Assembly (NCBI GenBank): GCA_964016885.1
Contig: OZ024743.1
Coordinates: 263,004,001 to 263,068,000, forward strand
Length of the DNA stretch: 64,000 bases
Source of the DNA: Eledone cirrhosa
Lineage: Eukaryota
Direction of reading: 5' to 3'
In this document: positions 4,458-64,000 of the stretch, in pieces
How the letters are laid out: the number at the start of each line of letters is the position of its first letter
How positions within the stretch are numbered: position 1 is the first letter of the stretch
Made by a program: the position numbers and the translations under genes
Notes under the pieces: generated by a model
What the model was told of the DNA's origin: nothing
Seen by the model: only the letters and a program-made list of their open reading frames with translations
Databases searched by the model: none

Positions 4458-4498
<41 letters not shown>

Positions 4499-4505
<7 letters not shown>

Positions 4506-5649: not shown

Positions 5650-5685
<36 letters not shown>

Positions 5686-14648: not shown

Positions 14649-15627
14649 TCAACTATTAAGAAACAAGGTAAAGAAAAGCATATAATACACAATACAAAAA
14701 AGGCTCCATAGTGGCCAGTTCAGATAAAAACTGTTTGACAAAATCTTTTGGGCCAGTGGACTCTTCGACCGGAACGGTGAAGGTGGGGCAGAAGGAGCAG
14801 GTGTATGTACAACAGTGAAATATGGGGGTATATGTGGCTCAGGTCTATGAGCGTCTGTGTATGCCCTTTTCAGTCTGTCAACCGAAATTGTCTCTCTGGA
14901 TCCCTTAATGTCTACAGTAAAATGTTTGTTAGTACGTGCTAACACACAGTAGGGACCAGAGTACCGTTGTGTGAGAGGTGGTCTAACAGTGTCATCTCTG
15001 ACAAAAACATGTATCCACGAGGCAATATCCCTCGGGACTGCAATTTTAACAGTTTGTTTCCTGGTATCCATAAGTGGTAAGTCCTGAAAATACGAGCGCA
15101 AACGAGATACATAGGAAAGGGGATCTTGAGTAGCAAGATCAACAGGGGAAAGCATTTGCCCAGGCAACGCTAGAGGAGCACCATACAACAATTCAGCCGG
15201 GGAGAATCCAAAGTCCTCCTTTATTGAAGACCGAATTCCTAATAACACAATAGGAAGGTACTCGCTCCAACGTAGAGAGTCTGGATAAGCGCGAAGAGCG
15301 GCTTTTAATTGGCGGTGAAAACGCTCCACCAATCCTTTTGAAGCAGGATGATAAGATGTAGTCCGAATGCGTTGAGCGTCAATAATTTTTGTTAACTCCG
15401 AGAAAAGATCGAATTGCCTACCACGGTCTGTAGTAATTGTGGTTGGCACGCCATAGCGGGCAATCCACCATGATACCAGAGCACGCGCTATCGGGTCGGC
15501 GGTAATATCCTTTAAGGGGATGGCTTCAGGCCATCGCGAAAAAACGATCAATGCAGGTCAAAAGGTAAGAATATCCACTACTGACTGGCCAAGGTCCAAT
15601 GATATCGATGAGGATGTGTCGAAAACG
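14649..15627 (-). pseudogene. Ty3/Gypsy integrase (rve core and GPY/F), frameshifted near 15545
   Basis: RFRHILIDIIGP…[45 protein letters not shown]. Truncated at about 15630 by the HHR element. Confidence 0.93.
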
Positions 15628-17289: not shown

Positions 17290-17870
17290 GAATTCAATTA
17301 AATCCTAACCCGGTGAACCCCACTTTCACCTTCAGTGAACAAAATGATTAACGATGCATGTAAAGCTTTCACTTCAGCCTGTATAAACTCACAACACACC
17401 GATGACATTAAATCAAGACCAATTGTAGCGGGCCCAAATTGTGAAATACAGAGACTCGGTAACTTTATAGACATAATATTGAAATCAATTCTAAAATATA
17501 TATCAAACCTCATAAGAGATGACCTAGACCTCTTAAACAACCTGCATAAACAGGTCAACATACATACCATTATTTTATCATTTGATGTAGTAAACCTCTA
17601 CACTACGATCCTACACCAATACGGACTAAAGGCAATAGGGTTCTGGCTCAAAAATTCCCTAATTCAATCCCGCAAAGAATAGAAAAAGGATTCATCACCG
17701 AGGGACTAAAATTCATTCTGCAAAATAATTGTTTTAATTTCAATGGCAATACTTACAAACAAATATAGAGTACTGCGATGGACACAAAAGTTGCCAATTT
17801 AGTCATGGCATGCCTGGAAGTCCATATTAAATCCAGATTAAAATATGACTTGAATTTCCACAAATCTTTG
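17290..17870 (+). pseudogene. Penelope-like RT fragment
   Basis: SRPIVAGPNC…FIDIILK…LSFDVVNLYT…, then after a frameshift LKFILQNNCFNFNG.TYKQ..TAM. Confidence 0.85.
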
Positions 17871-25700: not shown

Positions 25701-26170
25701 ATCCGCTAATCCCACACAGTCCCAGCGTGCATCTAAGATCCCGTTCCAGTCGCCCACTAACACTAAAGAGCGGGACGTTCCAAGAAAGGTCTCCAGACGC
25801 CGGAAGAAATCAGGCCGCCCTGCTCCTGTCGGGGCATAGACGGCCACTAGCCTGAAAGCTTGCCCGTCTCCGCTGGTCACGTCCAGCACCACCAGCTTAC
25901 CCTCTGTGTCCAGGAAGATGGCCCGTATGGCGAGATCCAAACCTCTCCGAAAAAGCACAGCAACTCCACCCCCCGATCCAGGACGGCTGGGAATGCGTAC
26001 ACATCGTAGCCGCCGAAGATCGGTGCGAAGGCCCGTGCTTCGGAGATTCTGGTCTCGCTGATGGCCACTACATCTATGTTTAGTGACCTGAGGTCGTTGA
26101 GCAGGTGACCCTGCTTCCATGACGACCCCAAGCCACGCGCATTTATGCTGCCTATTCTGAGTGAGGTCAT
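22762..26170 (-). pseudogene. Tx1 ORF2 (APE endonuclease, RT, zf-RVT), frameshifted
   Basis: MTSLRIGSINARGL, GDWN, SYLDR, TDH, SPGLDGLP, FRPITLLN, LDQSKAFDRVDH, QGCPLS, YADD, CPRC…H…C. Split over 4 ORFs. Confidence 0.95.
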
Positions 26171-26205
26171 GTTTACAATAGAGTGGAAATGATGGGAAAG
26201 ACCAC

Positions 26206-28316
26206 TTACCGTACTTTTGGTAGAGGAGGGATGGTTTTTACATCCCTTTTCACTTGATCGTCTGGTGAAGGGACCGTTGAATCGTCCCTTCGGCTGGTCG
26301 TCGGCTCTTCTATGAGAATGTCTGAATATACTCTTCGATTGATAGTTCCTCCTAGGACCCTGAAATCACCAACTGCGTTGGGGAATTTCGTTTTAATGTT
26401 TGTATATTGTTTCTGTGCTATTTTTAGCAGTCTTATGTTAGTTGGCGTTTTGATTGGTGCTGGTATTATGTAGTCGTGTTGTGAAATGTCTGTGTGTTCA
26501 ATTATGTAAGTCATTAGTTTCTTGTTGTGTGTATTTATTGCCGTGCATTTGTTTTTCTGGGGGTGGGGTGTGGTTCTGCTATTTTCTTGTCGTTGTTGCT
26601 GGGTGTGTGTGTTTTGTTGTTGTGTTTGCGATGTTGGTGCTTGTGGTGGTGGTGTTGAAGGTGTTGTTGGCGGTGGGGTTGTCGCCGGTGGTGATGGTGG
26701 TGCTAGTGTGGGTGGTGATGGTGTTGGTGGTGTTGCTGCTGTGGGTCTCTTTGCAGTAGACTTTACCCTTTTCTCATTTCTTTCCTCCCTTTTCAAAGGC
26801 GACGATGTGCTGCTTCTGCGTGGGTTTGTGCCTTCTTACGACCTTTTGCCATCCCTCTCCTACCTCACACTCCATGTCTGATTCTGTGAGGTCGGGGAGG
26901 GGTACCAGCTCCACTCTTTCACTTGTTGTTGTTGGTGATGTTTGCACTGGAGTCTCTGTTGCAGCTGCATTTGGTATTGCTGTTGTTGTTGTTAATATTT
27001 CCACTGCTGCTGCTGTTTTTGATTTCCGTGGCGTGGGTATGGGTGCCACGGACCTATCGTTCCTGGTTGCCGCTTGTCCTGTTGCTGGTAGCCGTGGAGC
27101 CGGTTTCGGAAGGAGGGGGGTTTTCTCCTTTCTCAGGGTCTTCTCGTTGCAGAAGGCCCTGAGGTGAGTCTTCGATCCACAGCGAAAGCATTTCGGGCGT
27201 TTGCCCTCAACACTTATGGGCAGTTGAGTGCCGTTATCGAAGTCTATCACATCCGGGATAGCTTCGATGCACTCCTGGTTGGTTTGGATTAACATCTCAA
27301 TGGAGGTGCCGACCCAATCTTCTCTTACTTTTTTCTGTACTTGCAGTACAGTTGTTTTGTCCTCGATTCCGACGAGGACAGACGCGGCCAGCCAAGAAGG
27401 GGCCATCCGGGGGGGGGGGGGGGGGGTCAGTTTGACCCTCACACTTTTTTGCCCGCAGTAGGAGGGCACCAACAACATTTCCTCGCTCCTTAGGGTCACT
27501 ACGGATTGAGCCTTTGCCTCCTCGTGTGTGGCAAAAAGTACGTCTACGGTGGCATATTTTTTGCCTCGGGTGATGTGCGTTTTCCGCTGCCACACAGACC
27601 CCAAGCTTTGCTTTTTGTATTTGAGCCTCTGTGGCTCTTTCAACCCTACGGTATTTTGTACTTACTGTACGGTACGTGACCGTACAGTGCTGTTGGGTTT
27701 CGAAAAATTTTTCCGCTGCCTTGCAGATTGCTCGGTATCCAGTTTTTGTCACCATCTTCTTCGCTTCCTCTAATTCCTCATTTGTTATGAGGATTGTTTC
27801 CAGGTTCTTCGCGATACCTGCAAATGAGATTGGTTTTTCTTTGCTGCTGTTGTTGTTGTTGTCGTCAGAGCTACTGTTACTTTTGTTGTTGCTGCAGGTA
27901 CTACGACTACTGCCTCCGCCGCTGTTGCTGTGGTTGTTGTTGGTGTTGCTGCTGCTAATGCTGTTGTTGTTTATGCTGCTGGTGATGCTGTTGCGGCTGC
28001 TACTGTTGTTTTCATTGTCACTGTTGCTGTTGTTATTACGGCTGCTACTGCTATTATTCCTGACGTCAGACGAATGAAATGGGTTTTCGTATTTCCCGCA
28101 CACCTGTTTCGTCGTTGTCGTCGTCGTGGAGAAATCTTGCACGCTTTGCACGAGACTTTTCTTTTCTGTCGTCGCTTGCGAAAGAGAAGGGAGGGAGAGA
28201 GGCACATTTAAAGAAGGGAGGGAGAGAGACAATCTTCTCTCTGCTGTAGTGATGATTGTGGAAGAAGAAGACGAAATGAGTGGGAGTGACCTATGAAAAT
28301 TCTTTTTCGTAGCCAT
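26206..28316 (-). pseudogene. Tx1 ORF1 (gag-like, CCHC zinc knuckle), frameshifted
   Basis: Three successive ORFs upstream of ORF2; CFRCGSKTHLRAFC. Confidence 0.8.
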
Positions 28317-28533
28317 GTTGTTTTTTTTTGTTTAAAATAAATATTGGGCACAAAACCCCAATAAGCAGTTATTTAACCCCGAAGGGCCAAATAACGGGCA
28401 GAAAGACCCCTCTCACGAGGAGGAGGGTGTTTTTGTCTACAAGTTCATTAAAGTTTTAAACAATTTACAATTGTTATAGCGTTCAAAATTTACAATACCT
28501 TACAGAGCCGAGCCTCCGTCAACCATAGAATTC

Positions 28534-28608: not shown

Positions 28609-31600
28609 TTTTGGAACGCTTCAAAAGGCATGCTTGCTGGGAACAGCAAAAACCCTCCGATACGTCCTGAATATCTGAGGCTGCAGTTAGTGGTTTGATA
28701 TTCATTTCAACAAACTTGTTTGTTTGTTTATTTATGTTCGTCTACAGCGTGATAATGCCACACAAAAATCATCGGGAGTGACGAAATCACCGGTGGTTAT
28801 GTAACCATACATTCGCCAATCCTCGATAAGAGTGTTTAAATGTCGAACCTAAACAGTTCGAATAACGGTGGAATGGAGACCAGAATGTCATGTGACAGAC
28901 TCTCACCCAACATGTGCTCCCTGGCTCAGCAGCAGGGACCTGGCTGTCAACCAAATACTGCTGGTATCGGAGGAAGAAGAAGAAGGAAAGGGACCAGAAC
29001 CAACTGGACGAAAGAATTGAATAGAACTGTTATGCAATGTTACCTGAAAAGTAACCCCAAGGAGAAAGGCTATAGGAAACGGATGCATAACATCTGGAAC
29101 GAGATTGGTCTATTTAAATTAGATGAACAAAAGTTGGCCGGGCAGGCTCGGGTAATAAGAACTAATGGGTGGATAAGCGAGCTGGAACTGGAGGAACTGA
29201 GCAGAGAGATTAGCTTGGAGATAGAGAGTGGAGTATGCCAGGCAAACGAGCCAGTGGGAAATGAAGGTAAAGAGGTCGAGAGAACGGAGGAACCACCCGA
29301 AGCAGACAATGATCTGAATGCTGAGATAAATAATACCTGGAACAGAGATACGGCCACTGAGGAGATGAATGCTGACGGGCTAGGACAAGATTTGGTTGAT
29401 ATCCTAAACTTAGTGGTAGATGAATTGAACAATGATAGTGGGAAACCTATGAACCTAAGATTTGTAGACAGGAAAAAGTTAAAAGAAACAACAGCTAAGG
29501 TAAACAAAGTCATCCCATACCTTGAGGCGAGGAGCCTTCACCAGTGCAACAATATCCTCAAAGCAACAGCAAATACGGTGAGGAAACTACTTGGTATAAA
29601 AGCGAGAGGAAACAACAGACAAGAAAGAGCAGAGCCTTGGTGGAAGAAACGACTGAGTGGTCAAATCAGGGAAATGAGAAATGACATTGGAAAGCTTGAG
29701 TCCCTACTGAATGGGACACTAAAAAACATAGACACTAAAAATAGACTGGAAATAAAGTACAAAACTAGGAGGAAAAAGCTAAATATTATCATAGAGGAAC
29801 TGAAGCAACGCATTGTAGCAAAGAGTGCAAAAATCAGGCGATACGAGAACAGAGTCAGTCAGTATAGACAGAACCGCATGTTCGACAACAACCAGAAGAT
29901 GCTGTTTGGACAGCTTGAAGGGAAAGAAAGAGGCAACGACTTGATCCCTGAGGCGGAACAAACTAAAATATTCTGGAGAGGAATATGGGAGCAGGATGTT
30001 AAACATAATGACCAGGCAGTGTGGATTGAGACAGTACAGAAGGAGATTAGTGAACAGGCACACCAACAAACTGATTTGAGTATCACAGTTGAAACTCTTA
30101 AGGGGCAGGCCCCAAAACTAACCAACTGGAAATCACCAGGCCCAGATGGTGTGCAGGGGTATTGGATTAAAAATATAACATCCCTCCACCCGAAACTGAC
30201 AACCATGTTCAATGACTGCTTGATGTCAGGTGAGGTACCAGAGTGGTTGACAAAAGGTACCACAGTTCTGATAATGAAAGACCGAATCAAGGGTAATGAT
30301 GTTACCAACTATAGACCTATCACATGTCTGTCCGTAATGTGGAAACTGTTGACAAGCATTATGTCTGAGGAAATCTACCATCACCTCCACACAAACAACT
30401 TGTTACCGGACGAACAGAAAGGATGCCGAAAGAAGTCACGTGGTACAAAGGACCAGTTGCTTATTGATAAGATGGTAATGAGGAATTGCAAGAAGAGATA
30501 CACTGATCTTGCCATGGGATGGATAGACTACAAAAAGGCATTTGACATGGTGCCTCATTCTTGGATCACCAAAAGCCTGGAGATCTTCAAGGTGGCAGAT
30601 AACATCAGACAGTTGTTGGGCAAAAATATGAAGTCCTGGGAAACAGAGTTAACATCAACTGGAGAATCCTTGGGAAGCGTGAAGATCAAGAGAGGTATCT
30701 TCCAGGGAGATAGTCTGTCCCCTCTGTTGTTTGTCCTTGCCCTGATGCCCCTGACCAGTGTACTGCGAAAAGTGAGAGCAGGATACAGGTTGGGAAAGGG
30801 AGAGCTTACCATCAATCACCTCCCCTTCATGGACGATCTTAAGCTCTTCGGGAAGAGTGAAAGGAGTTGGATGTGCTTGTTGACACTGTCCGTATTTTCA
30901 GGAATGATATATGTATGCAATTTGGTATTAGTAAGTGTGGAGTCCTTGTGATGAAGAGGGGTAAATTGAGCAGAAGTAACGGAATCCAGGTACCAACAGG
31001 TGAGATGATAAAGGAAATTGACTCTGAAGAAGGATACAAGTATTTGGGTATTCTGGAGTCTGATGACATCAAGAACAAAAAAATGAAGGAATTGATAAGA
31101 ACTGAATACATTCGGAGAGTAAGGAGCGTATTAAAGTCACATCTGAACAGTAGGAATGCATAAGTGCAGTAAATTCCCAAGCTGTATCTATTATTAGGTA
31201 CAGTGCGGGAATTCTGAGATGGAATGTTGCTGAACAAAAAGAAATGGATAGGAAGACTAGGAAGCTATTGACTATCTACAACATGTTCCACAAGAGGAGT
31301 GATGTCGATAGACTCTACTTAAGGAGATCTGAAGGTGGAAGAGGTCTTATCAGCATAGAGGACTGTGTTCAGATGGAGAAAAACAACCTACACAAATACG
31401 TGACTGATAGTAAGGAGCCAATGCTCAGAACTGTACTGAAGGAGGGGACAATAGACCAGGGGATGTCCAAGGAGGAAATAAGAACGTGGAGAAAGAGCAG
31501 CCTTCATGAATTATCCCTTCATAGTACCTTCTTTGAGAAAATTGAATTTAGAGATCCACAGACATGGAACTGGTTGAAAAGAGGAGACCTTAAAAAGGCT

Positions 31601-32365
31601 ACAGAAGGAATGTTAATGGCTGCGCAGGAGCAGGCCCTCAAAACGAAGTGGTTGAAACACCATATTTACAAGGAGGAGGCTAGCCCACTGTGCAGGATCT
31701 GTGGAGAGAGAGAGAGAGGAGACTGTGGCTCACATTGTATCCGAGTGTAAACACCTAGCACAGACTCACTATAAGGGCTGGAGACATGATGTGATGGGCA
31801 GGGTGATCCACTGGCACCTATGCAAAGTAAACAATTTACCACATTCTGAGAAGTGGTATGGGCATAAGCCAGAGTCGGTGATAGAAAACGATCAGGTGAA
31901 GGTGCTGTGGGATTTTAGGATACAGACGGACAAGAAACTGGAACACAATAGACCTGACCTGGTGGTTGTGGACAAAGAAAAAAGATCGTGCCTGATTGTG
32001 GATGTGGCCTTCCCATTCGACACGAGAGTGCAAGAGAAGGAGAGGGAGAAAATTAACCGATACCAGAACTTAAAGTGGGAGGTAAAAAGGATTTGGAACT
32101 GCCATGAAGTCAAAGTGATCCCGATTGTCATAGGCGCACTAGGGACTATCTCAAAAAGTTTCCAGGGATGGTTAAAGAAAATTGGCCCATTCACGCTTTT
32201 TGGAACGCTTCAAAAGGCATGCTTGCTGGGAACAGCAAGAACCCTCCGATACGTACTGAATATCTGAGGCTGCAGGTAGTGGCTTGATATTCATTTCAAC
32301 AAACTTTCCAGTTAACTAACATCAATGACTGAGACTCAAAGAATAATAATAATAATAATAATAAT
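28608..32365 (+). mobile_element. R4/Dong-type non-LTR retrotransposon, near full length, with (AAT)n tail
   Basis: Single-ORF RT + zinc finger + REL endonuclease, inserted in (TAA)n, the known Dong target. Confidence 0.85.
28840..32267 (+). pseudogene. RT plus restriction-like endonuclease ORF, broken into 4 pieces
   Basis: WKSPGPDG, YRPITCL, WIDYKKAFDMVPH, GIFQGDSLSP, FMDDLKL, CRIC..HIVSEC, RHD, WDF.IQTD, RPDLVV…DVA.P.D, VIGALG. Confidence 0.93.
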
Positions 32366-33280: not shown

Positions 33281-36200
33281 GCTTTCTTTATTAACCACAA
33301 GGGTTTACACAAAGTAAGACATTAAAGACAATACTTGACAAATAAAGGACGGTACAAATGGACATTTCTGCGTGTAAAAAAACAAAACCAGAGGATGTAC
33401 CAAAAAGAAACAATGAAAAATTCCCCAATAGAGGGAAGACTTCCGAGGGACATTCGTGGAGAAAGCCCATTAAAAAAGCCACGGTGACCCTGACCACCAG
33501 GCCAAGTGCCCTCTCCCAGTTTTCCACCTTCATCTTACCGACACATACTCGGGCCATTCTTGCCTCTCTCACCCATCTTTCAACAAAATGCTGGGAAGAG
33601 AGCACTTCCCTCTCTTCCCTGATTTTCCTTTTCAAATGAAATTTGAAAAAGTTAATCAGGGCATCACCGAAGAGGTAAGTTCTCGTCTTCAGCCCTTTCA
33701 AACGCGTCCACCATACTATCTCTTTCGCCATGGCCACCGGACAGATAAAAACTGCCTGCCCTTCCCGGCTAAAGGAAGAGGGCGGGGCAATCCTCACGAT
33801 GGACTCAGCTGGTAGCCGGATCCGTCCTACACGCGACAACAGGTGTTCGACATAAACCCAGAAGTCAGCAATGCTCGGACACTGGACGAGTGCGCGCAGG
33901 ACGGTTTCGTCACCCTGCGCACATCTCGGACATACCCGGCTGACGGCACCTCCATGCTTGTAGAGTTTATCCCGAACTGGCAAAGCCCTTCGGTAGCACT
34001 GCCAGGCCAGGGATTTCTGGAAGTTGTCCATAGGCCTCGGCTCGAAAGAGATTGGCTAGTTGATTTTCGTCGACGCCTAGAGTTTCCCCAATTACGTCGT
34101 CGCACTTCCCCACCACTAATCCTCTATAGAACGCCAAGGTGGAGTTTCCTCCGATCACATTGCCCGACTGGTCGAGGGCTGTGAGCGCCTGAAGACATTC
34201 CAGTCTCCAAGCGCTCCCTCTCGGTCTTCGCTTGACTCAGGACTACAGCTCCGTCAAGGAGATGAGCTGGGGAAAGACGCGTCTAGCAAACGGCGACCGC
34301 ACCTGATCACCGTCGAGGAAGAGGTGGAGATGTCGTAGCCTGAGCGCGTGCCTGCGCATCATCAGCCACGGCATGCCCAGCCCTCCACGTAGCGGGTGGT
34401 GACAACAGATGGACCGCCTGACCATCGGAGCGAGTCCCTTCCACAAAAAGCGAAAGAGCAAACGCTCCAGTGCAGTTAAGCGAGGCTTAGGACAAGGCAT
34501 GACGGTCAGGCTGTAGTAGATGACGGACGCGATGTACGCATTCGCCACCTCCGCTCGAGCTTTCAGGGATAGCTTCCTCTCTGCCCATTTCTGGGTGAGA
34601 GAAGTCACCCTGCTTGTCACTTCGTCCCAGTTTTTGTCCGTCTGGAGGTCCGTACCGAAACAGACCCCTAGCAATTTAACCGGTCCGTCCGTCCAGCGCC
34701 CGACGACGCTGTTGGACGGCATGGACCTGCCTCTCCCGGTGCCGAGCTGCCTACCGACTTTTCCTGGTTGATCATTGCTCCCGTCACCGCCTCGTATTCT
34801 CTTAGTGTAGTGTCGATCGCCTCAATGTGTTTGGCGTTCGACACCACTACGGTGACATCGTCCGCATATGCCGACACGGATCTTCCGCATCCTAGTTCGC
34901 GTGCCCCCCCCCCCTCCCTCAACGTCTTCAGTTTGTGAAGTAATGGCTCGAGAGTCAATACGTACAACAATGACGAGAGGCGACATCCTTGGCGAACCGA
35001 GCGCATGATGTTGAACGGTTCCGAAAGATGACCGTTCACTCTCTCCATGTCGCTGTGCATGGCAGCGATCCAGCCTCTGAAGACGGGCCCAAAACCATCC
35101 GCCCTCAGGATTGCCGCCATATAACGATGGTCTACCCTATCGAAGCTTTCGACTGATCTAAATTGATCAAGGACCCACCCGTGCCAGGTTCCCTAGCTAC
35201 CCTCTCCACGATGTATCGCATGAGGTGGAGGTTGTCGTGGATGGACCTGTCTGGAATGGCACATGTCTGCGCCTCTCCCACCAGACCACCAACCTCTCTG
35301 CTAGCACATTGGCTAAAATCTTGAACTCTGTGTTTAGCAGAAATTATCTATGTTATCCCTCTTGTTCGGATCCTTTCTCAGCAGCGCCACCGCTCCTCGG
35401 CTCACAGAGCTGGGAATTCTCTCGTTCTGTTTCCAGTTGCAGTAGACATCCGAACAAGTCTGGTATGTGTACGTAAAGTTCGTAGGGCAGACCATCCAAA
35501 CCAGGCGATTTACTCCTTGTGCAGCCAGTCATTGCCTCCCGTACTTTAGCGGCTGTTATCGGCTTTTCGCAACACTTCACCTCAGTGGCCGAGAGGTAGG
35601 CACTAAAGTCCATCCCTAGATCCGGCCCGCCGCTGCTCCAAAACAGCTGAGCGAAGTGTCGCTGAAAAGCTTCACACATTTTCCCGGGATCGAGTAGCAT
35701 GCGCCCGTCGTGGTCCATCAAAGACCGGATCGAGGCTTTGTTTCAACGATGCGCCTCCGCCACTCGGGCCCATTGAACGGCTTTCGTCCCCTCATGTCTT
35801 AGAGCACGCACCCTAGCTCTGACAACGCAGCCTTCGTACTTTGCATTTAAGAATTGGTCAAGGGCCAATTTCGCCGCAAGTACGTCGGTCGCGATGCCTT
35901 TCCTAAGAGCCTCGTCTAATTTTCTAACTAGTTCTCCCTCTGCTCTATTTTTCTCTATTGCTAAAGCCTTACTAAACCTAATGGACTCTATTCTAATTGC
36001 TCTTTTCAGAGCAAACCACCATTTGTTGTTGACGATGGCCCCCGTCAACACCTGCTTCAGTAGTTCGCTAATCCGGTCTCTGTAGGCCTTGCGCTCTGTT
36101 AAGGACGCGTTTAGCTTTCAGTAGCCGGGTCGCTGTCTATGAAGCCTATCTAAGTCAACCTCACAGATCATGAATTTGTGGTCCGTGTAGTCGACTATTT

Positions 36201-36890
36201 TGAAATGTGGACAGCCTATGCTAGACTTATCTATTTCCCTACAAAATACCCTATCTAGATATGATCTGGATGACCCGATGCGGTTTGTCCATGTCCACAT
36301 TGTCACATTCGGGAAATCCAGACGGTACCTGTCAGACAGTTGAAACCGTCTGAGCAGGTTTGCGAGACTTTTACACCCTCCACCCCTATCCCCTAATCCC
36401 ACACAGTCCCAGCGTGCATCTCGTTCCAGTCGCCCACTAGCACTAAAGAGCGGGACGTTCCAAGAAAGGTCTCCAGACGCCGGAAGAAATCAGGCCACCC
36501 TGCTCCTCTTGAGGCATAGACGGCTACTAGCCTGAAAGCTTGCCCGTCTCCACTGGTCACGTCCAGCACCACCAACTTATCTTCTGGGTCCAGGAATATG
36601 GCCCGTATGGCGAGATCCGAGCCTCTCCGAAAAAGCACAGCAACTCCACCCCCTGATCCTAGACGACTGGGAGATGCGTATACATCGTAGCCGCCGAAGA
36701 TCGGTGCGAAGGCTCGTGCTTCGGAGATTCTGGTCTCGTTGATGGCCACCACATCTATGTTTAGTGACCTGAGGTTGGTGAGCAGGTGGCTCTGCTTCCA
36801 TGACGACACCAGGCCACGCGCATTTATGCTGGCTATTCTGAGTGAGGTCATGTTGAAAAGGAGTGGAAAAAGATAGGAAAGACCACTTAT
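33281..36890 (-). mobile_element. 5'-truncated, decayed copy of the Tx1 LINE (ORF2 only)
   Basis: High identity to 22512-26210. ATG at 36851, many frameshifts, 3' end abuts (AAT)n. Confidence 0.93.
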
Positions 36891-36914
36891 ATAAACACAC
36901 ACACACACGCGCGT

Positions 36915-36996
<82 letters not shown>

Positions 36997-37004
36997 GCAC
37001 ACAC

Positions 37005-37058
<54 letters not shown>

Positions 37059-37062
<4 letters not shown>

Positions 37063-37265
37063 GAAAGGAGTCAGGGCCCCGACTGCTGAGCTCCGGCCGT
37101 TTCAACAGCTAGATCCGAACTCGTAGTTCGGATCTAGCTGTCGAAAGGGCCGGAGTTCAGCCGTGGAGGCCCTGACTCTTTTCATATTACCCACTCTACT
37201 ACCCTAAGTATCGAGTACTCTGGTGCGTTATGGTTTACCTGGTATCTTACCACACACTCTTTGTT
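37059..37265. mobile_element. Palindromic truncated PLE-type end (37059-37187); both arms hold only the 3' half of an HHR
   Basis: Arms of about 62 bp. Consensus GAAACGGC cggagttca GCCGT C. A related tail occurs at 40160-40270. Confidence 0.5.
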
Positions 37266-38060: not shown

Positions 38061-38096
38061 TCTTCTGATGAAGGACTAGCGTCCGAAACGTTAAGA
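38061..38096 (+). ncRNA. Minimal PLE-type hammerhead within an element fragment at about 37965-38180
   Basis: tctt CTGATGA a ggac tagc gtcc GAAACGT T aaga. Homologous to 57570-57792. Confidence 0.75.
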
Positions 38097-42404: not shown

Positions 42405-42513
42405 ACGTAAGAATATGTATATGTCTGTGTGCGTATGTATATGTATGTGTATATGTGTATATATAAATATATTTGTATATATGTAGGTATGAATGCATGC
42501 GTGTATGCATATA

Positions 42514-42568
<55 letters not shown>

Positions 42569-42699
42569 ATTGCTCTACAGAATGTTTTCTTCCTCAGCTC
42601 TCGACTAGAAATTTCAACGATTTCGATATTTTCCACCAGTGTCACTTCCTCCGGTGTTGCCAAGAAGCATTGATCTTAATAGGGAACATCCAGCATAAC

Positions 42700-43547
42700 C
42701 AAGAACCTGGTAAAAACGTTTCTTTGAAGCTTTCCCGTCTATCTACTAACGAGCATATTTTCAACGACCATTTCACATATTACAATGAAGCTCTTGCTCG
42801 GAGTGGATTTGTCGATAAGATAGCATATACAGAGTACGAGTATAGACCTAGAAAAAATAGATCCCGACGCATTATATGGTATAACCCACCATATAATATG
42901 GAGGTGGCCACACCATTAGCTAAGATCTTTCTCTCCCTTATTATGAAGCATTTTCCCCCAACACATAAATATAGTAAAATTTTTAATAGAAATACCATTA
43001 AAATATCTTACTCTACGACTCCTAACCTTGCACATAACATCACAGCTTCACATTTAGCTAAACTACCTAGCCGTAGGAACACGTGAACCCTGTAGTTAGT
43101 ACTAACTGCAATTGTAGGAATCGGGTTGACTGCCCCCTATCCGGGAAATGCCTCTCTAGTAACATTGTCTACAAATGTAAGGTTGAAACACCCACGTCCC
43201 GTAGGGACTACATAGGGTTAACCGCCAATAGATTCAAGCAGCGTGTTTACATGCATACCCATTCTTGTTTTAACCCTTTAAGAAGGAATATGAGGTCACT
43301 TTCAGCTTATATCTGGAGTCTAAAAGACAACCACACCCAATATAAGTTACACTGGGAGATCCTAGCTAAGGCTAGATCGTATAACGGAAATAAAAGACCA
43401 TGTGACCTCTGCGCCGCTGAGGCCCTGGAAATACTCTACGCCAAAGACCACATCTTAAACAAAAAATCTGAGGCAATTTCGGCTTGTAAACATAAATTGC
43501 ACAAAACATTCCTGTATTACAGCCCCACATTATACCCTAACGGATAG
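42700..43547 (+). pseudogene. Penelope-like (Naiad-type) RT thumb and GIY-YIG endonuclease, frameshift at about 43083
   Basis: IIWYNPPY…KHFP…KIFNRNTIKISYS, CNCRNRVDCPLSGKCL, IVY…YIG…FKQR…H, CDLC..E…LN. Confidence 0.88.
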
Positions 43548-45623: not shown

Positions 45624-45905
45624 GTATGTGTGTGTGTGTGTGTGTATATGCGGGTGTCTGTGACCTATATAAACCGGTAACACACACACACATACATATA
45701 TATATATATTCATATATATGTAGATAAATCTACCAAAATATACGGTAGTGTCCAATCCGTATGAAGAACTGAATGTAATCCAAATATCATAAAAAAAGAA
45801 GATGCATTCAAAAATTTTCCATGAAAATCATAGGAAAACAGAGTCAAGATAATTAATAAAACAATGAATAAAAACAAAGAACAAGTTCCTTATATTAAAA
45901 AATTC

Positions 45906-46036
45906 ATCATTTTACGATCGTTTCTAGGATATATATGTGTGTTGGTATGTATATCATATAGATCTATGTAAAAATATTACAAACTATCAGAGGAAATATA
46001 CATACCTTCACATATATATGCTGTCTTCAGAAATGA

Positions 46037-48533: not shown

Positions 48534-51072
48534 GTGTTTCTTTATTAGCCACAGGGGCACAAAAGAAGGAGACAAATACAAAGGGGGTAGTTTACATACA
48601 ATAAAAACGTGTAAAATATGATCACAAATGCAATTTAAAAGTTAATTGATTTTCCCCAATAGGGGGAGACATTTCATATGGGTAACACATACCCCCGAAA
48701 AAATGTGCAACCCTCATCTCCAGGAGTACGAAGAGTTTGTATCTCTTTCCTCTCTTCCTCCTTTTCCTCAACCTACAGGCTGATATAGAGAGAAGGCCCA
48801 TTCACTCGGGCCATTCTCGCCACTTTCACCCACCTTTCATAAAACTTGCTGGGGAACAGCACCTCTCTCTCCATCCTGATTCTTCTTCCAAAGTGGTACT
48901 TGAAAAAAAGAATCAGTTGTTGGCCGGAGAGAAAGGTGTCTGACCTCAGCCCTTTCAACCTTGTCCACCATACAACCTCTTTCGCCATAGCTATCACACA
49001 AAGGAAAACCTCCTCTCCTTCATTTTTGAAGGAGGGTGGCGGTTTGATCATGACAATGGACTCGGTGGTCAACCGGATTGGTACCACCCGCGACAATAGT
49101 CGTTCTACATAGCCCCACAGATCGGTAACGCCCGGGCAGTGTATGAATGCGTGCACGACGGTTTCTTCGTCTCGCACGCATCTCGGACAGATCTTTTTCG
49201 AAGGGTCCCTGCCCGGGCGCCCATGTCTGTAGAGCTTGTCTCGAACTGGTAGAGCTCCTCGGTAGCACTGCCTGGCCAGGGACTTTTGGAAGTTGTCCAC
49301 CGGTCCCGGGCGGAAGGTCCTACCGAACAGACTGGCCAGTTCGTCTTCCTCTACGCCTAGAGCTTCTCCGAGCGCGTCGTCGCACTTGCTGCGGATCAAC
49401 CTTCTATAGAATGACGAAGTGGAGTCTCCACTGATCGCCGGGTCCGCCTGCCAGAGTGTTGTGAGCGCCTGAGCACATTCGATGTGTCAGTCGCCCATTT
49501 TCCTCGGTCCTTGCTTGACCCAGGACTGCAGCTCGGTCAGCGAGACGAGTCGTGGGAAGGCTCGCCTCACGAATGGGGCCCACACCGGTTGTCCGGTGAG
49601 GAATACGTAGAGATGCCGCAGCCTGAGCGCGTGTTTGCGCATCGTCAGCCACGGCATCTCCAGCCCTCCATTGGAAGGGTGTTGCAGCAGATGGATTTTC
49701 TCACCAGAGGAGCCCGCTTCTTCCAAAGGAATTGGAAGAGGGCGCGCTCTATTTTGGTGAGCGTTTTGGCTGGACAACGCACGACGGTCAAGCGGTAGTA
49801 GATGACGGACGCTATAAACGTGTTCGCCACCTCCGCTCGACCTTTCAAGGATAGTTTGCACTCGGCCCACTTCTGGGTGAGTGCATACACCTTGGCCGTC
49901 ACCTCGTTCCAGTTCTTCTCCACCTGGAGGTCCGGACCAAACCAGACCCCGAACAACTTTACCCGTCCTTCCGTCCAGCGTCCGACGACGCCATCGGAAG
50001 GCATCGGTTTGCCTCTCCACGATCCGAGTTGCAAACCGATGGACTTGTCCCGGTTCAACTTCGCTCCTGTGAATCTTTCGTATTCCTTCAGTTAGGTGCC
50101 AACTTCCTCGATTTGCGAGGTGCTCGACACCATTACTCTGACGTCGTCGGCGTAAGCCGACGCCGCTTTCCGCAGTCCCGGTTCCAGAGGGATGCCCTGC
50201 AGTAGCTCCAACTTCCGCAGTAGTGGCTCGAGAGTCAGTACGTACAGAAGGGAGGATAGAGGGCATCCCTGTCGAATGGATCGCGTGATATGGAACGGCT
50301 CCGAGAGGTAGCCGTTCACCTTGACCCTTGAGCAGATGTTGCTGTTGTGCATTGCAGCAATCCAGCCCCTGAACACGGGTCCGATGCCTGCCGCCTCGAG
50401 CACCGCATCCAGGTAACGATGGTCAACCCTATCGAAATCCTTAGACTGATCCAAGTTGATCAGGGCCCCACCGAAGCCGGGTTTACACCCTACCCTCTCT
50501 ATGATGTATCGCATGAGGTGGAGGTTGTCGTGTATGGACCTGGTCGGGATTGCGCATGTCTGCGCTTCTCCCACTAGATTTTCGACGACAAGTGCCAGCC
50601 TCTTTGCCATCACATTGGCCAAAATCTGTAACTCTGTGTTTAGCAGAGTTATATGCCGGAAGTTGCCTATGTCATCCCCCTTATTCTCGTCCTTCCTGAC
50701 TAGTGTGACTACGCCCCTGGTCACAGAACTGGGAATTCTCCCGTTCTGCTGCCAGTTGCAGTAGACCGCTTCCAGGAGACCGGAGAACAAGTCCGGCATT
50801 GCTACGTAAAATTCGTAGGGTAGACCGTCGAGACCTGGAGATTTGCGTTTGCCGCATTGGCTCAGCGCGTCCCCTATCTCAGCGGCTGAAATCGGCTTTT
50901 TGCAGAACTTCGCCTCGCTGTCCGAGAGTCGCGGTAGGCCGTCGAGGTATGGACCGAAATCCATAGCCCCTCCTGGCGCGCCGCTCTGCCCGAACAGCTG
51001 AGGAAAGTGCCGCTGAAAAGCCGCGCACATCTGCTTCGGCTCACGTATCACGCGTCCGTCTTGGTCCTTCAA
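48534..51072 (-). mobile_element. 5'-truncated Tx1-like LINE of a second subfamily (RT and zf-RVT)
   Basis: SPGLDGLP, QGCPLS, YADD, CPRC. 14-bp TSD AGAGATAGATAGAT at 48520-48533 and 51073-51086. Confidence 0.92.
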
Positions 51073-51123
51073 AGAGATAGATAGATAGAGAGATAGAGAG
51101 ATAGAGATATAGAGAAAGAGAGG

Positions 51124-51157
<34 letters not shown>

Positions 51158-51191
51158 TATAGATAGATAGAGAGGGAGAGAGAACGAGAGC

Positions 51192-51298
<107 letters not shown>

Positions 51299-53599
51299 TG
51301 TGTGTGTATGTTTTAGCAGAGATTAAGTATTCTGTTCATCTTGAATCGTTCTTTTCTTATTTTTAGCGAAATCTCAAAGCCGATGATAAGAAAATTAAAG
51401 ATGACTGTAGCAGACGATATTACATATCGGATTGATATTGATATTTGAATTAGATTATTACATGTGTTGTTTTTATAGATGTTGTGACTCAACATTTACC
51501 CTCAGGGCTTTTTGCCAGTATCTCACATCATTATCTATTCCTTTGTTACAGAATGTGGTAAACAGAGTCGGTTACTTGATCTTTTTCCAAACCAAATATT
51601 TGTCGAAATCAATTCTCCCGAATTCTAGAAAATGTCTCTCCCAAATCTACATACATTCCTTATCTTGTGCCTTGACATATCGACCTATATTACGGCTCCC
51701 TAAGCTTAAATATTTTGGCCGTGTACAGAGAAATAAGAATCGACTACATTGGTTAGTATACCGACATACTATTGACTCGACCAGCTGCCACTCCACCAAT
51801 TGCCATATCAGAAGACATGTTTAGTGTCTACGCAGTTCTTTTTGTGATATTGATGACCATAGAAATAGATCCATGGAGGAATTAAGCTACTGTTATGCGG
51901 TCAAAATTTCAGAGAAATCTACGATAGGTACGTTAGAACGTCGGTTAGACTGCTTTGCGGTATTCGTTCTGGATTCCTGCACTCATCTCGCCAAGGTCAG
52001 CTTCTCCCTTCATATTTTTGAGGTTGATAAAATAGTACCGATTCAGTACGGACACCAGTCCTTCTATACATTTCTATACATTTCGCACTTCTTCTCTATC
52101 ATTCTCATTCCTTATTTAAAAAAAAAAACCCAGCTGCTTTACGATCTGGAGAGAAGACGGCTTCCGCTAGGTTTAAAAATGCCCAAGAAGCACTGCCATC
52201 ACGACTCCATCAGGAGTTACGGGTTGAGAAAAAGAAGATAGGCACAAGGCCACACATTTTAAGTAAGGTGTGTCGTCAATTTCATCGTTCTCAGTACTTT
52301 ATTTATGGAATGAAGCTGTGATAAACGATAAAGCCAGTTTTGACAGGATTTGAATTTCGAATGTAAAGAATTGTAGTTAAACACCACAATACATTTTATT
52401 TGTCATTCTACTGATTTAGTAGTCTTGGAGTCATTGGTTTCTGGCATTGGCACAAGACTATACATTTTTTGTGGGGGTGGGGGGTGAGGTGGATATATTC
52501 TTAGCATTTTATTATTATACCATTAACACGAGGGCGGTGGATAGGCAGAATCGTTAGAGGCATCGGACGAATGCTTAGCAGTATTTGTTCTGGCTCTTTA
52601 CGTTCTGATTTCAAATCCCGCAGAGGTCAACTTTGACTTTCATCTTTCCAAAGTGAATGAAATAAAGCACTAGTTAATTACCGATGCCGATTTAATCAAT
52701 TTTTCCTTTCTTTCAAATTATTGGCGTTGTGCTTTGTGCCTATAAACTATTATTATCCCATTAACATCTAGGATGTATTATAGGAATATAAATATATTTC
52801 AATACTTGTTTGGTACTTTACTTTATATACCCAGGAAGATAACCATGTCGAGATTTGAACTCAAAATTAAAAGACTATAACTGAAAAAAAATGCATATAT
52901 ATATATTTCTAATTTCAAACTCGGTCGCTGTTTCAAAACACACTAACTTGTCATTATACTTGCTAAGAATATAGGTTCTAATTTCAATAAAAGGGGATGG
53001 GTGATGTGTTGGTGTAAGCACAGTGGTTTGAATAATCAAAGATGTGGGTTCGACTCCTATGTACGTCAAAACTCATCTTTTTTTTCCATTTCTTAGAGGG
53101 TTCTAAACTCCACTATCAGGCTAACATTTTCTTTAGTAAAAAATACGACGAAAGCTTCTAATTTCACACACACATACACTCGTACATACATATATACACA
53201 CATACACACATATATATAGCTATGTTCGAAGCTAAATTCTAATTATATATATATATATATATATATAGTAATAGTAATAGTAATAAATTTGAAGACCTAA
53301 ATCCATATATATATATATATATATATACGCACATACACACACATATATAGCTATGTTCGAAGCTAAATTCTAATTATATATACATATACATACATACACA
53401 CGCGCACACACATATATATAGCTATATTCGAAGCTAAATTCTTATTCTCTCTCTATATATGTATATATACAAACACATACGCACATTCATACGTACACAC
53501 GCCTGTCTATGTATGTATGTATGTATGTATGTATGTATGTATGTATGTATGTATGTATGCATGCATGCATGCATGCATGCATGCATGCATGTATGTATG

Positions 53600-54997: not shown

Positions 54998-55071
<74 letters not shown>

Positions 55072-55168
55072 TATATATATATATATATATATAGTACATT
55101 ATGAAGAGAGAAGAAACATTTAGATATAATTAGTAATAAGATGTATCATACCTAAACTGCTTCTAGAT

Positions 55169-55258
55169 TCCTCGACTACGTAGTTTCGTGGCATAATCAA
55201 AAACAATACATCATAGAGATATAGAGCTTCTGTGAGGTCTGCCGACTTATCAAGAGGA
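55169..55258 (-). ncRNA. Hammerhead with U3-A8 core (mirror copy)
   Basis: Reverse complement of 55752-55841. Confidence 0.75.
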
Positions 55259-55751
55259 TACCTCATTTTACTAGCTTCAAAGAGCACGTCTATAAGATGT
55301 GAGATAGAATCCCAAAAGGCGGAGGGGGAGTCAATCACGTGATACGACGGTCAAGAAACAGAGCTAAGCCCCTTATAACCCTGAAAAAAATACCACGGAG
55401 GCGGAGGGGGTATTTATATCGAGGCCGTAGAAGAGGTGGTTAAGGAGGCAAGAAGTATGAGTAATGGCAGCTTCCCAGCAGTCACTACACTTCAAGGATT
55501 ACTCGACCAGGAGGAGTTATAAACAATATATTGAGAAACACACAGATACATGCGGACACATACATATACATGAATATATCCACATCCATCCTTGAGTTAA
55601 TGGTGCCAACCTTAACCGATGTTGCTCTATGAATAACTGGGACAAACCAATCCGAATGGATTAGACTGAACCAGTATCAGAGCTAAAAGTACATTATGAA
55701 GAGAGAAGAAACATTTAGATAAGTGCTCTTTGAAGCTAGTAAAATGAGGTA

Positions 55752-55841
55752 TCCTCTTGATAAGTCGGCAGACCTCACAAAAGCTCTATATCTCTATGAT
55801 GTATTGTTTTTGATTATGCCACGAAACTACGTAGTCGAGGA
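55752..55841 (+). ncRNA. Hammerhead with U3-A8 core (TTGATAA), 46-nt loop II and palindromic stem III
   Basis: tcctc TTGATAA gt(c)ggca [46 nt] tgccac GAA ACTACGTAGT C gagga. Confidence 0.75.
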
Positions 55842-56800
55842 ATCTAAAAGCAGTTTAGGTATGATACATCTTATTACTAATTATATCTAAATGTTTCTTC
55901 TCTCTTCATAATGTACTTTTAGCTCTGATACTGGTTCAGTCTAATCCATTCGGATTGGTTTGTCCCAGTTATTCATAGAGCAACATCGGTTAAGGTTGGC
56001 ATCATTAACTCAAGGATGGATGTAGATATATTCATGTATATGTATGTGTCCGCATGTATCTTTGTGTTTCTCAATATATTGTATATATATATATATATTC
56101 CTGAGTTTCCACAATCTCCAGATTACCTGATGTTATGTCTCATCCGAAATATCGGTGTACGTAGGCACTTGTAAATAAGGTTTCTGAATAACACGGCGGG
56201 TGATTCAAATGCTCGTGTAAGATGATGACCCACTGTATATGTTTAATGTTTTTTTCCTTTACCCTAAATTACAAACTATGCGACAGTATCGGTAGAGGAT
56301 CGGGCGCCATGCTTTGCAGCATAGTGTTACGGCCCTTTACGATCTGAGTTCAAATCCGACTGAGATTAACTTTGCCTTCCCTCCTTACGGGGTCGATAAA
56401 ATAAAGTACCTGTAATGCACTGGGATAATTGCTGGCCTTGTGCCAAAAGTAGAAACAATTATTATATGTTCATCGGTGGATTGGCAGTATCGGTAGAGGG
56501 TCGGACTCCATGCTTTGCAACATAGAGTTACGGCCCTTTATGATCTGAGTTCAAATCCCACCGAGGTTAACTTTGCCTTTCCTCCTTACGGGGTCGATAA
56601 AATAAAGTACCAGTAATGCACTGGGGTAATTGCTGGCCTTGTGCCAAAGGTAGCAACAATTATTATATGTTCCATCTGTGAAATTTCAAATAAAGCCTCT
56701 TGTCTTAAACAAGGAGTGAACATATTTTACTCCACAGCATGTGTTGCATTGTCTCTTCTCTTTCTCTATCCGCCTCTCCCTCTGTATATATATATATATA

Positions 56801-58920
<2,120 letters not shown>

Positions 58921-61152: not shown

Positions 61153-61183
<31 letters not shown>

Positions 61184-61389
61184 GTATGTATACGTACATA
61201 CAAATATGTATACAGACGTACAGTAGTATGTATATATATACATACATGCACACATATATATATGCACGTATCGGTTTACCGAACATTTATTATAATGCTC
61301 GGATTGTTTGTAAACAAACAAACAGCCCGAATTTCGCCGTACAGTGTTTAGGCAACCACATCACCTTTTTGTTCAACACGGACACAGGA

Positions 61390-61432
61390 ACGATGTACTA
61401 GTTTCAAGCTTATTAGCTATCGTCAGCATCGT
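61390..61432 (-). ncRNA. Minimal hammerhead with palindromic stem III
   Basis: acgatg CTGACGA tagc taataa gctt GAA ACTAGT A catcgt. Confidence 0.8.
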
Positions 61433-62143
61433 ATACCTTCCTGCAAGAGGGTTGAACGTATGAAAGTCTATACTTTCCTTATGCATATTAACGGCTGAGC
61501 AGCCTAATTTGCATATCGAGTGAGTTCAGTCGCACCAAAAACGATAAATGGAATAGAATGAAACGAAATTTCATTTCTCACTCTTAGTACGGCACTTACT
61601 TAAATGTAAGTATGTATGTATGTATACGTACATACATATATGTATACAGACGTACAGAAGCATGTAGATGTATACATACATGCACACATATATATATGCA
61701 CGTATCAGTAAGCTAATAAGCTTGAAACTAGTACATCGTTCCTGTGTCAGTGTTGAACAAAAAGGTGACGTGGTTGCATAAACACTGTACGGCGTATTTT
61801 CGGGCTGTTTGTTTGTTTACAAACAAACAAACCGAGCATTATAATAAATGTTCGGTAAACTGATACGTGCATATATATATGTGTGCATGTATGTATATAT
61901 ATACATACTACTGTACGTCTGTATACATATATGTATGTACGTATACATACATACATACTTACATTTAAGTAAGTGCCGTACTAAGAGTGAGAAATGAAAT
62001 TTCGTTTCATTCTATTCCATTTATTATTTTCGGTGTGCCCGGCCGACTGAACTGACTCGATATGCAAATTAGGCTGCTCAGCCGTTAATATGCATAAGGA
62101 AAATATATACTTTCAGACGTTCAACCATCTGGCAGGAAGGTAT

Positions 62144-62186
62144 ACAATGCTGACGATAGCTAATAAGCTTGAAACTAGTACATCGT
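62144..62186 (+). ncRNA. Minimal hammerhead (same family)
   Basis: acaatg CTGACGA tagc taataa gctt GAA ACTAGT A catcgt. Confidence 0.8.
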
Positions 62187-62569
62187 TCCTGTGTCAGTGT
62201 TGAACAAAAAGGTGTAAACACTGTACGGCGCAATTCGGGCTGTTTGTTTGTTTACAAACAAACAAACGGAGCATTATAATAAATGTTCGGTAAACCGATA
62301 CGTGCATATATATATATGTGTGCATGTATGTATATATATACATACTACTATATATATATTTCGTTTCTGAATTTGTTTAGCAAGATTCTTTAGCTGAAAA
62401 CGTGTGTTGAAACCGATATTGTTATACTTTGGGAGGGTCATGTTGCCAATAAGAAACACACGCACCAGTTGCTTTCACTTCAATTTATTATAATAAATTT
62501 ATAAATTTAGGAATTTATAAATTGCCGGTTGGTTGGTTGGTTCCACAACCAGATGATTGTTTATATATT

Positions 62570-62753: not shown

Positions 62754-64000
62754 TTATTTACATGTTACTGGTTGGTTGTTTGTTCCATGTGCGTGTGTGT
62801 TTTCATTTTGTCTTGAATTGTAAGTTGTGGTCTTGCTGTTCCACTGATGTTTTCTATTTAATTTTGGTTGGAGTTCATTTATGTTTATTGCCTCTGTGAT
62901 TTGTCTAAACATTGCGTCTTTTCTGTGTGTAGATTCTATTTTTATTTCTATGTTCTCTAATTTACCCTTATGTTCTATTTTAGCATGTTCGTAGAGTACA
63001 GATGATTCTTTACTATCTTGAAGGTCTCGCCAGTGTTCATTTATCCGTTCCCCTATACTACGAGCTGTCTCACCTATGTATACTATATTTTTATCTCTAC
63101 ATTGTCCTTCAGTACATCTTATGTTATATACTACATTTCTAGTTTTACAGTTAATATGGGGGCTTAATTTATAGATTATACATTTCTTATCTATACAGGG
63201 AAGTCTTTGAAAAGGGTATGTATTGCTAATTAGTGTTTTTATGGAGGTACCTGGTCTTTCTGCTATCTTAATATTGAGTTTCTGTTTATCTAGGGCCCTT
63301 CTAAATTTGTAAGCTAATTCACCTCTAGGGGTTGTATCGATGAACATTACACTCTGGTATTTATTGCTATCATACCATGAGTTTATTCTATTAGCCTTAT
63401 TCCTAGTTCTTTCTATTCTATTCCAAAATTTGCTCCTATACATCTGGCAGGTCCCATTTGTGTCGTTATTTACCATTTTTTCCCATTTGGTTCTGGCTCC
63501 TCTATATACTCTGATTTTATCTCTCTGATTGTAACCAGAGAACTGCATACGGTGGATGAAGTGTTGTATGTGTCTCTCTAGTTCTTCGGGGTTGCACATG
63601 CGGGACACGTTTCTCATCACCCGTACCAAATCCGCAATCTGTATATTGATTTTGGTATGGTCCGAAACAGCTGAGTTTCGGTGGATCAGATATTTGGAAG
63701 TCATGGGTTTGGCATAATGGGAATGGAGGATTTGTTTTTTGTTATTAATTGTTTCTACTTTTGGCACAAGGCCAGCAATTACCCAGTGCATTACTGGGAC
63801 TTTATTTTATCGACCCCCGTAAGGATGAAAGGCAACGTTAACCTCGGCGGGATTTGAACTAGAGATCATACAGGGAGGTAACTCTATGCTTCAAAGCATG
63901 GCGTCCGACCCTCTACCCATACTGCCAATCCACCGTTTTTTGTTATTAATGGTATCTAACCAGAGCTCTGTGTCTAGTACAGGTAATCGATGGTTGGGTG
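62754..64000 (-). pseudogene. Penelope-like RT C-terminus plus GIY-YIG, interrupted by a SINE; runs off the window
   Basis: NVVY.I.C…YIGETARSIGERINEH…E…I…LN. Removing the SINE restores …LPVLDTELWLDTINNKKQILHSHYAKP. Confidence 0.9.
63750..63934 (-). mobile_element. SINE inserted in the PLE ORF
   Basis: 16-bp TSD GTTTTTTGTTATTAAT at 63734-63749 and 63935-63950. Confidence 0.93.

Follow-up and report, generated by a model that had tools for sequence, protein, structure and literature searches.

The locus at 55093-56083 of the DNA analysed here (64 kb in all, hereafter the window) belongs to a repeat family that bears on how Penelope-like elements (PLEs) make inverted copies and tails, and on whether their hammerhead ribozymes give circular templates. 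PLEs form partial tandems, often have an adjacent inverted 5'-truncated copy, are biased towards (TA)n and carry a tail of 30-40 bp, often at one end only, as described in PMC8557442. The same layout is reported in PMC3846280, together with head-to-head inversions, mobilisation in trans and a proposed self-priming on an antisense template. According to PMC4209133, hammerheads sit in the PLE pseudo-LTRs, their helix III is palindromic and their activity in vitro is low, and circular templates were proposed there for PLE copies of more than unit length. The locus studied here is likely an insertion of a non-autonomous PLE (a PLE-type retrozyme), with the following features:

55070-55092, no strand: left flank, (TA)n target tract, preceded by a (CA)n run (sequence).
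55093-55721, minus: main arm of 629 nt, that is, the 595-nt unit plus 34 nt (self-BLAST).
55093-55126, minus: 3' copy of the 34-nt direct repeat, the end of the terminal pseudo-LTR (self-BLAST).
55169-55258, minus: type I hammerhead, copy 1, core 55253-55247, C17 at 55174 (descriptor scan).
55233-55265, minus: predicted 6-bp pseudoknot between loop II and the helix I-proximal sequence (complementarity of 55265-55260 with 55238-55233).
55259-55517, minus: body of the unit, non-coding and 5' of the ribozyme, likely a promoter region (sequence).
55518-55526, minus: E2, a fixed 3' end of the family, AT-rich, with TA microhomology to the target (read ends).
55688-55721, minus: 5' copy of the 34-nt direct repeat, remnant of a 5'-truncated upstream tandem unit (self-BLAST).
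55721-55722, no strand: joint at which the two arms meet head-to-head; asymmetric, joining unit position 55721 to 55288.
55722-56083, plus: inverted 5'-truncated arm of 362 nt with its 3' end at E2 (self-BLAST).
55752-55841, plus: type I hammerhead, copy 2, core 55757-55763, C17 at 55836 (descriptor scan).
55918-56083, plus: the 'tail', a 3' extension present on one side and spanning E1 to E2, ~165 nt, a copy of 55687->55523.
56082-56098, no strand: right flank, (TA)n target tract (sequence).

As shown by self-BLAST, the main and inverted arms stand head-to-head with (TA)n on both sides, and no target-site duplication could be discerned in the sequence flanking the insertion. The ribozyme-sense strand of the main arm is the minus strand, and the arm has its 3' end at a fixed site, E1 (55093-55095), 81 nt beyond the hammerhead cut site. 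The exact repeat between its two ends (34 of 34 positions identical in 55093-55126 and 55688-55721) established the 595-nt unit that an earlier note on this DNA had proposed; the arm measures 1.06 units and crosses the cut site. The repeat is a very short direct pseudo-LTR. Its reading as the classical 30-40-nt tail was rejected, since the one-sided extension is the 165-nt stretch between E1 and E2 and the 34-mer is a truncated upstream unit. E2 lies ~246 nt beyond the cut site, and the main arm reads through it. The inverted arm aligns without a break to 55288->55093 and then to 55687->55523, so it is, as had been claimed, contiguous across the unit junction. It runs past E1 since its own end is E2, 165 nt beyond; and as the family has an internal start at E1, read-through at this junction needs no circle. 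The E1-E2 stretch is a tail by the published definition, at four to five times the usual length. At the 55721/55722 joint itself no perfect palindrome was found.

The unit has a GC content of 41% and a longest ATG-initiated ORF of 48 aa, and none of its 14 peptides of at least 25 aa had a tblastn match in the rest of the window. An ORF with reverse transcriptase (RT) plus GIY-YIG is absent from the 595 nt, and the unit was therefore classed as non-autonomous, with a PLE protein needed in trans. By BLAST, the unit sequence had no match elsewhere in the 64-kb window. The layout includes a partial tandem with a pseudo-LTR (the 34-nt direct repeat, the 629-nt arm and a junction that is crossed in other copies), an adjacent inverted 5'-truncated head-to-head copy with a variable breakpoint, an AT-rich or (TA)n target, and a one-sided extension between two fixed 3' ends, here of 162-170 nt against the published 30-40. 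The 595-nt element is very probably of the PLE type. It also has features of a non-LTR retrozyme, namely an ORF-less unit that closes head-to-tail (in overlapping diverged pieces) and one type I hammerhead.

Coding remnants of PLE type are present in the window. A decayed fragment lies on the minus strand at 62754-63806, where HTH_animal and GIY-YIG were found in 92% and 17%, respectively, of the members among its atlas neighbours; it has no sequence link to the 595-nt family. Those at 42493-43547 (+) and 17317-17682 (+) we take, by motif, to be decayed PLE-like protein fragments. Pfam gave no family for any of the four candidate PLE fragments in the window.

To follow the family beyond this locus we used public sequencing runs, six of which, none recorded as RNA, contain part of the 595-nt unit. 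Four of the nine listed runs, X1, X4, X5 and X7, were aligned to the unit at 80% likeness. Matches were obtained for 1,345 of the 17.1 million X1 contigs, for four X4 and two X5 contigs, and for 3,139 of the 12.5 million DNA reads of X7, a reduced-representation library whose proportions are biased. The X1 pieces fall into four identity bands (307, 439, 373 and 226), which indicates many diverged copies; depth is no copy number. The analysis covers the 17 loose ends listed of 192 and the 40 substitutions listed of 140; core variants, or an ORF-bearing continuation from E2, could exist beyond these. Exact-pattern scans of metagenome and viral contigs returned no match.

Loose ends that run into (TA)n pile up at two places. 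At E1 (55095) they were seen in 155 X7 reads and 5 X1 contigs, and at E2 in 248 X7 reads and 4 X1 contigs (55526) and in a further 8 X1 contigs (55518). In the window, the main arm terminates at E1 and the inverted arm at E2. The outer ends are thus fixed at two sites and only the inversion breakpoints vary among copies, which is the PLE pattern and not the random permutation of start points that the earlier note had envisaged. Four further joints between opposite strands were recovered (55268/55585, 55382/55639, 55569/55604 and 55595/55685); these and the joint of the window are asymmetric, with offsets of 35-317 nt. Two of the four could be oriented from the read geometry (in one, 37 nt separate the CATG at 55549 from 55585; the other is that of the 55639/55382 reads), and both have the head-to-head orientation of the joint in the window; each comes from one X7 start and may represent one locus, and the 55382/55639 joint is additionally present in an X1 contig.

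The same reads cross both ends. E1 is crossed head-to-tail in other copies (55689->55095) in one X5 contig and in 5 + 9 X7 reads. E2 is crossed into the same body in X1 record 55444-55555, in 16-18 X1 contigs at 55511-55512 and, at the same point, in 24 X7 reads from 13 starts; because some of these reads have 7-16 other differences, closure is common to diverged copies. The 595-nt circle is tiled by overlapping pieces of diverged copies, no single one of which covers the whole unit. A unit that is closed head-to-tail and free of ORFs is very probable. Many copies have the segment 55568-55663 replaced (252 + 859 X7 reads with loose ends), which indicates that sister families are mixed into the aligned set.

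Crossing of E2 argues against a reading in which the pieces are no more than the terminal pseudo-LTRs of an autonomous PLE, with a 595-nt unit that arose by internal deletion and is confined to a few copies, as does the lack of any coding remnant in the unit. In its favour, most X7 reads that reach E2 stop there, with a depth of ~860 at 55534-55554 and of ~23 at 55492-55512, the sequence in the middle of the tail differs between copies, and PLE hammerheads are described in PMC4209133 as mostly solo truncated copies. We consider this derivation quite improbable. The inverted arms, the fixed ends and the TA flanks would also fit a MITE-like DNA transposon that has long inverted ends and inserted at TA, or an artefact of the assembly. 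However, neither terminus repeats the other in inverted orientation (one is E1, the other E2), the inner breakpoints vary, the two arms differ at five sites, and joints of this kind are found in independent reads. Both have been largely refuted already, and hardly any chance is left to them.

The arms of the locus differ at 5 of 360 internal positions and at the junction base. At all five sites the main arm has G or C and the inverted arm A or T, and one X4 contig is an exact match to the main arm over 55553-55703, a span that includes two of the five. Both arms carry all eight of the tested bases that deviate from the read majority, so they derive from one source lineage; this fits one source template and also the copying of one arm from the other. 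Within the body, a TATA-like box at 55418-55411 is poorly conserved (55415 varies in 67% of the X1 depth and in 5 of 21 X7 reads), and no Pol III A or B box was found in the 595-nt unit. A candidate intron of ~64 nt immediately after the ribozyme, with a GT donor, CTAAT, a tract of pyrimidines and AG at 55684-55683, proved unsupported and was dropped, since the acceptor G is missing in 941 of 1,081 X7 reads and no joint skips the intron.

The two hammerheads were confirmed, with the TTGATAA core, intact stems and GUC site that had been noted, by a strict descriptor and by their helices. Both have the U3-A8 core, GAA, the GUC site and G10.1-C11.1, a helix I of 5 bp (TCCTC/GAGGA), a helix II of 6 bp with one bulge (GT.GGCA/TGCCAC) under a loop of ~46 nt, and a helix III, ACTACGTAGT, that is a perfect 10-nt palindrome; in copy 1, helix II is 55246-55240/55193-55188 and helix III 55184-55175. 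A Watson-Crick 3-8 pair, GAAA, an NUH site and helices I-III, the marks of a type I hammerhead, are all present. On both strands of the 64 kb the strict descriptor matched copies 1 and 2 only. A relaxed descriptor found nine motifs in the window, five C3-G8 and four U3-A8, against 0.7 per shuffle, or 0.1 per shuffle when a palindromic helix III of at least 6 nt is required (20 shuffles each), so the variant U3-A8 core does recur in the window. Rfam reported no hammerhead among its 10 matches at this locus up to E 10, nor, for the C3-G8 motifs of the window, any match among the 150 listed of 166; the ribozyme call is therefore based on the descriptor match, on the helices and on conservation in reads.

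That conservation is uneven across the ribozyme. Among the 40 substitutions listed of 140, the 44 core and stem positions have none and the five that fall in the ribozyme are all in loop II, as are seven of nine indels. A common variant at 55233 turns a U-A pair of the predicted pseudoknot into U-G. An extended helix I was also considered, and the read variants gave it no clear support. For the monomer, adopting the hammerhead fold costs 1.5-3.6 kcal/mol relative to the minimum-energy structure, and helix III self-pairing is worth -12.9 kcal/mol, values that, as computed, are as expected for a hammerhead acting as a dimer. In the ribozyme, U3-A8 would take the place of C3-G8, and the palindromic helix III is predicted to let it cut as a dimer. 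Engineered U3-A8 cores retain some activity.

How were the two arms made? In the PLE of Anolis carolinensis (PAc; PMC11167929), the protein nicks and extends both target strands. Reverse transcription begins inside the RNA, at 111-118 nt of the ORF, and since the cut lies at +26 this is 85-92 nt beyond it; the sequence between two such starts makes up the tail, and the ribozyme is dispensable for insertion. By analogy, a tandem source locus of the 595-nt family would be transcribed through the ribozyme, yielding an uncut multimer or a re-ligated circle, and a PLE RT/GIY-YIG nuclease supplied in trans would nick both (TA)n strands. Reverse transcription would then start inside the RNA at E1 (+81 nt) or at E2 (~+246 nt). 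One strand, primed at E1, would extend for 629 nt and the other, primed at E2, for 362 nt, priming being the presumed cause of the ends seen at the locus. Both cDNAs would stop at arbitrary points and be joined head-to-head, and the E1-E2 interval would be left as a 165-nt tail at one end. That the inversion arose from priming of both target strands has, in our judgement, about an even chance.

Alternatively, the polymerase may have switched polarity, turning onto antisense RNA or onto its own cDNA and using the 34-nt repeat to jump E1; in the corresponding version of the last step, a nuclease or TA microhomology would resolve the intermediate at E2. The eight private bases common to both arms agree with such a switch, the 34-nt repeat would supply the homology for the jump, and the near-symmetric palindrome of the locus at 4844-5517 (see below) adds to the case, as do two published proposals, self-priming on an antisense template (PMC3846280) and resolution of the tail by a nuclease (PMC8557442). 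On the other side stand the asymmetry of the present joint and of the four read joints, the outer end of the inverted arm, which coincides with E2, the main fixed end of the family, and the extension of both target strands by PAc in vitro (PMC11167929). We regard the switch as rather unlikely; the asymmetric joints and the inverted arm that ends at the main fixed end led us to favour priming of both target strands.

Whichever way the arms arose, their template can be constrained. The main arm exceeds one unit and both junctions are crossed elsewhere, which requires a template longer than the unit or a closed one. The suggestion of the earlier note that the template was circular or multimeric thus stands in this form. 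An uncut tandem transcript, a circle and a jumped template are the candidates, and DNA alone separates none of these.

A circle would be formed if dimers self-cleaved at GUC and a host ligase closed the 595-nt monomer, rolling reverse transcription of which would give copies longer than the unit. The unit is closed at both junctions in the reads, each arm runs through an intact cut site, and the summed X1 depth, although noisy, does not drop there (359k, 392k and 408k in three adjacent bins). Peaks of X7 molecule starts and ends at 55549, 55572 and 55128-55131, considered as a cleavage signal, proved to be CATG and AATT library sites, and the peak at 55167 arises from reads of the 55268/55585 joint, so none of them marks cleavage. 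The sense strand folds better than its shuffles (z -4.2 as a linear molecule; -3.75 as a circle, against -1.26 for the antisense), but 4 of 28 control strand-windows (12 shuffles each) reach a z as low, so this folding is not specific. Circles of coral, mussel and axolotl retrozymes have been demonstrated (PMC7229834), and retrozyme units of 51-972 bp are reported in bioRxiv 10.64898/2026.07.22.740005. However, an uncut tandem transcript accounts for the same DNA, each arm has one ribozyme per strand, so that the locus cannot release a monomer in cis, and PLE hammerheads cleave poorly in vitro (PMC4209133). In PAc, insertion is independent of the ribozyme and, as far as the account in PMC11167929 goes, no RNA-seq reads end at the cut. 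We therefore hold the circular retrozyme only as a tentative, somewhat doubtful reading. The fuller version, a 595-nt U3-A8 circle that parasitises a PLE RT dimer and is copied from E1 and E2 on both strands of the (TA)n nick, is more doubtful still; if true, it would tie retrozyme circles directly to the inversion-plus-tail signature of PLEs, and would make the family a long-tail PLE variant whose mechanism is readable from many genomic copies. The account as a whole, an ORF-less hammerhead repeat mobilised in trans by a PLE and inserted head-to-head in (TA)n, is probable.

Other hammerhead loci of the window show related layouts. The '5335 family' (4844-5652) has a head-to-head near-palindrome at 4844-5517 with two U3-A8 hammerheads (cores at 5340 and 5017), whose helix III is ACGATCGT, with a C-A mismatch at the base of helix II and a loop II of ~80 nt. 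One of its arms stops 56 nt beyond the cut, and the second arm extends ~135 nt further, into (TA)n, the same two-end pattern as in the 55093 family. A C3-G8 relative, 5'-truncated beside (TA)n, lies on the minus strand at 45696-46030; the '5335' locus and 45991-45696, with its C3-G8 core, are 68% identical over 317 nt (0 of 200 shuffles as good), and since their cores differ, the 3-8 pair switches between U3-A8 and C3-G8 inside this lineage. The 55093 family had been called unrelated to it, which holds at the BLAST level and is borderline by local alignment (score 72 against 54 +/- 7, reached by 4 of 200 shuffles, as the best of five comparisons). From these alignments, an independent origin of U3-A8 in the two families appears plausible.

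A third PLE-like locus, at 61170-62352, combines inverted and partial-tandem arms with C3-G8 hammerheads and ends that differ by ~50 nt; its cut sites are near 61396 (minus) and 62181 (plus), and a truncated third hammerhead lies at 61724. The inverted-plus-tandem architecture is routine in this genome. Minimal C3-G8 hammerheads with a 4-nt palindromic helix III were seen at 56935-56962 (-), 57670-57697 (+) and 38065-38092 (+), the first two of them head-to-head with ~700 bp between them, and 78% alike over 140 nt. A strong inverted repeat at 4494-4751 and a separate one in 3601-4195, with a folding z far below that of shuffles, look like further inverted-arm elements.

The window has, besides, an extreme density of microsatellites and a low GC content, which point to an invertebrate animal as the host, perhaps an octopus-like one. 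Broken ORFs of non-LTR retrotransposons and an integrase-like fragment, with endonuclease and RT motifs recognised by eye, occupy 22762-28331, 33291-37070, 48773-51312, 28840-32267 and 14649-15557. A 191-nt interspersed repeat, possibly a SINE, is present in five copies (8624, 12096, 47127, 56273 and 56474), the last two in tandem just to the right of 55093-56083.

The inverted arrangement, the U3-A8 core and the circle model have all been published already for PLEs. What is new here is small: a tail of ~165 nt against the published 30-40, and the switch between U3-A8 and C3-G8 in the '5335' lineage. The family probably contributes a naturally occurring U3-A8 hammerhead whose helix III is both full and palindromic, and no new class of element or ribozyme core. 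As a short, abundant and ORF-less family with two fixed ends and many joints, it is a convenient test object for models of PLE inversion and tails. In the papers searched we found no report of the 595-nt family or of so long a tail; the family may already be catalogued in repeat databases, and similar motifs may stand in supplements. Nor did we find in the literature a measured U3-A8 cleavage rate, PMC4209133 being the sole source on U3-A8.

That source describes ~1,300 U3-A8 motifs in Schistosoma, with pairs on opposite strands 100-700 bp apart. As far as its description allows the comparison, the Schistosoma mansoni PLE Cercyon has the same U3-A8 covariation and the same opposite-strand pairs; its hammerheads, unlike those of the 595-nt unit, are minimal, with almost no helix III, and belong to a different host. 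Animal retrozymes derive from PLE pseudo-LTRs according to bioRxiv 10.64898/2026.07.22.740005. The non-LTR retrozymes of metazoans (coral, mussel, axolotl and vertebrates) resemble the present family in their ORF-less head-to-tail unit with one type I hammerhead, a GC content below 45% (here 41%), a structured sense strand, a size within 51-972 bp and their proposed PLE origin. They differ from it in the core, U3-A8 here, in the single complete ribozyme per strand at this 1.06-unit locus, and in the PLE-type inversion and tail, absent from the retrozyme descriptions as far as these go.

With the PLEs that have a C-terminal GIY-YIG (Penelope/Poseidon, Neptune, Nematis and Hydra) the family shares the 3'-proximal type I hammerhead with palindromic helix III, the partial tandem, the inverted 5'-truncated head-to-head copy, the one-sided tail, the (TA)n target and a fixed internal 3' end ~80 nt past the cut. 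In contrast to them, the 595-nt unit has no ORF, a tail of ~165 instead of 30-40 nt, a direct pseudo-LTR of only 34 nt, a longer helix III (the 10-nt palindrome), a loop II of ~46 nt and TA microhomology at its ends. PAc, a Poseidon element, is autonomous, and only 30-40 nt separate its two sites, which lack homology to the target, unlike those of the 595-nt unit. Common to PAc and, on the two-primer model, to the present family are two internal starts downstream of the hammerhead that bound the tail, and the extension of both strands; E1 lies 81 nt past the cut here against 85-92 nt in PAc, and the target is AT-rich in both.
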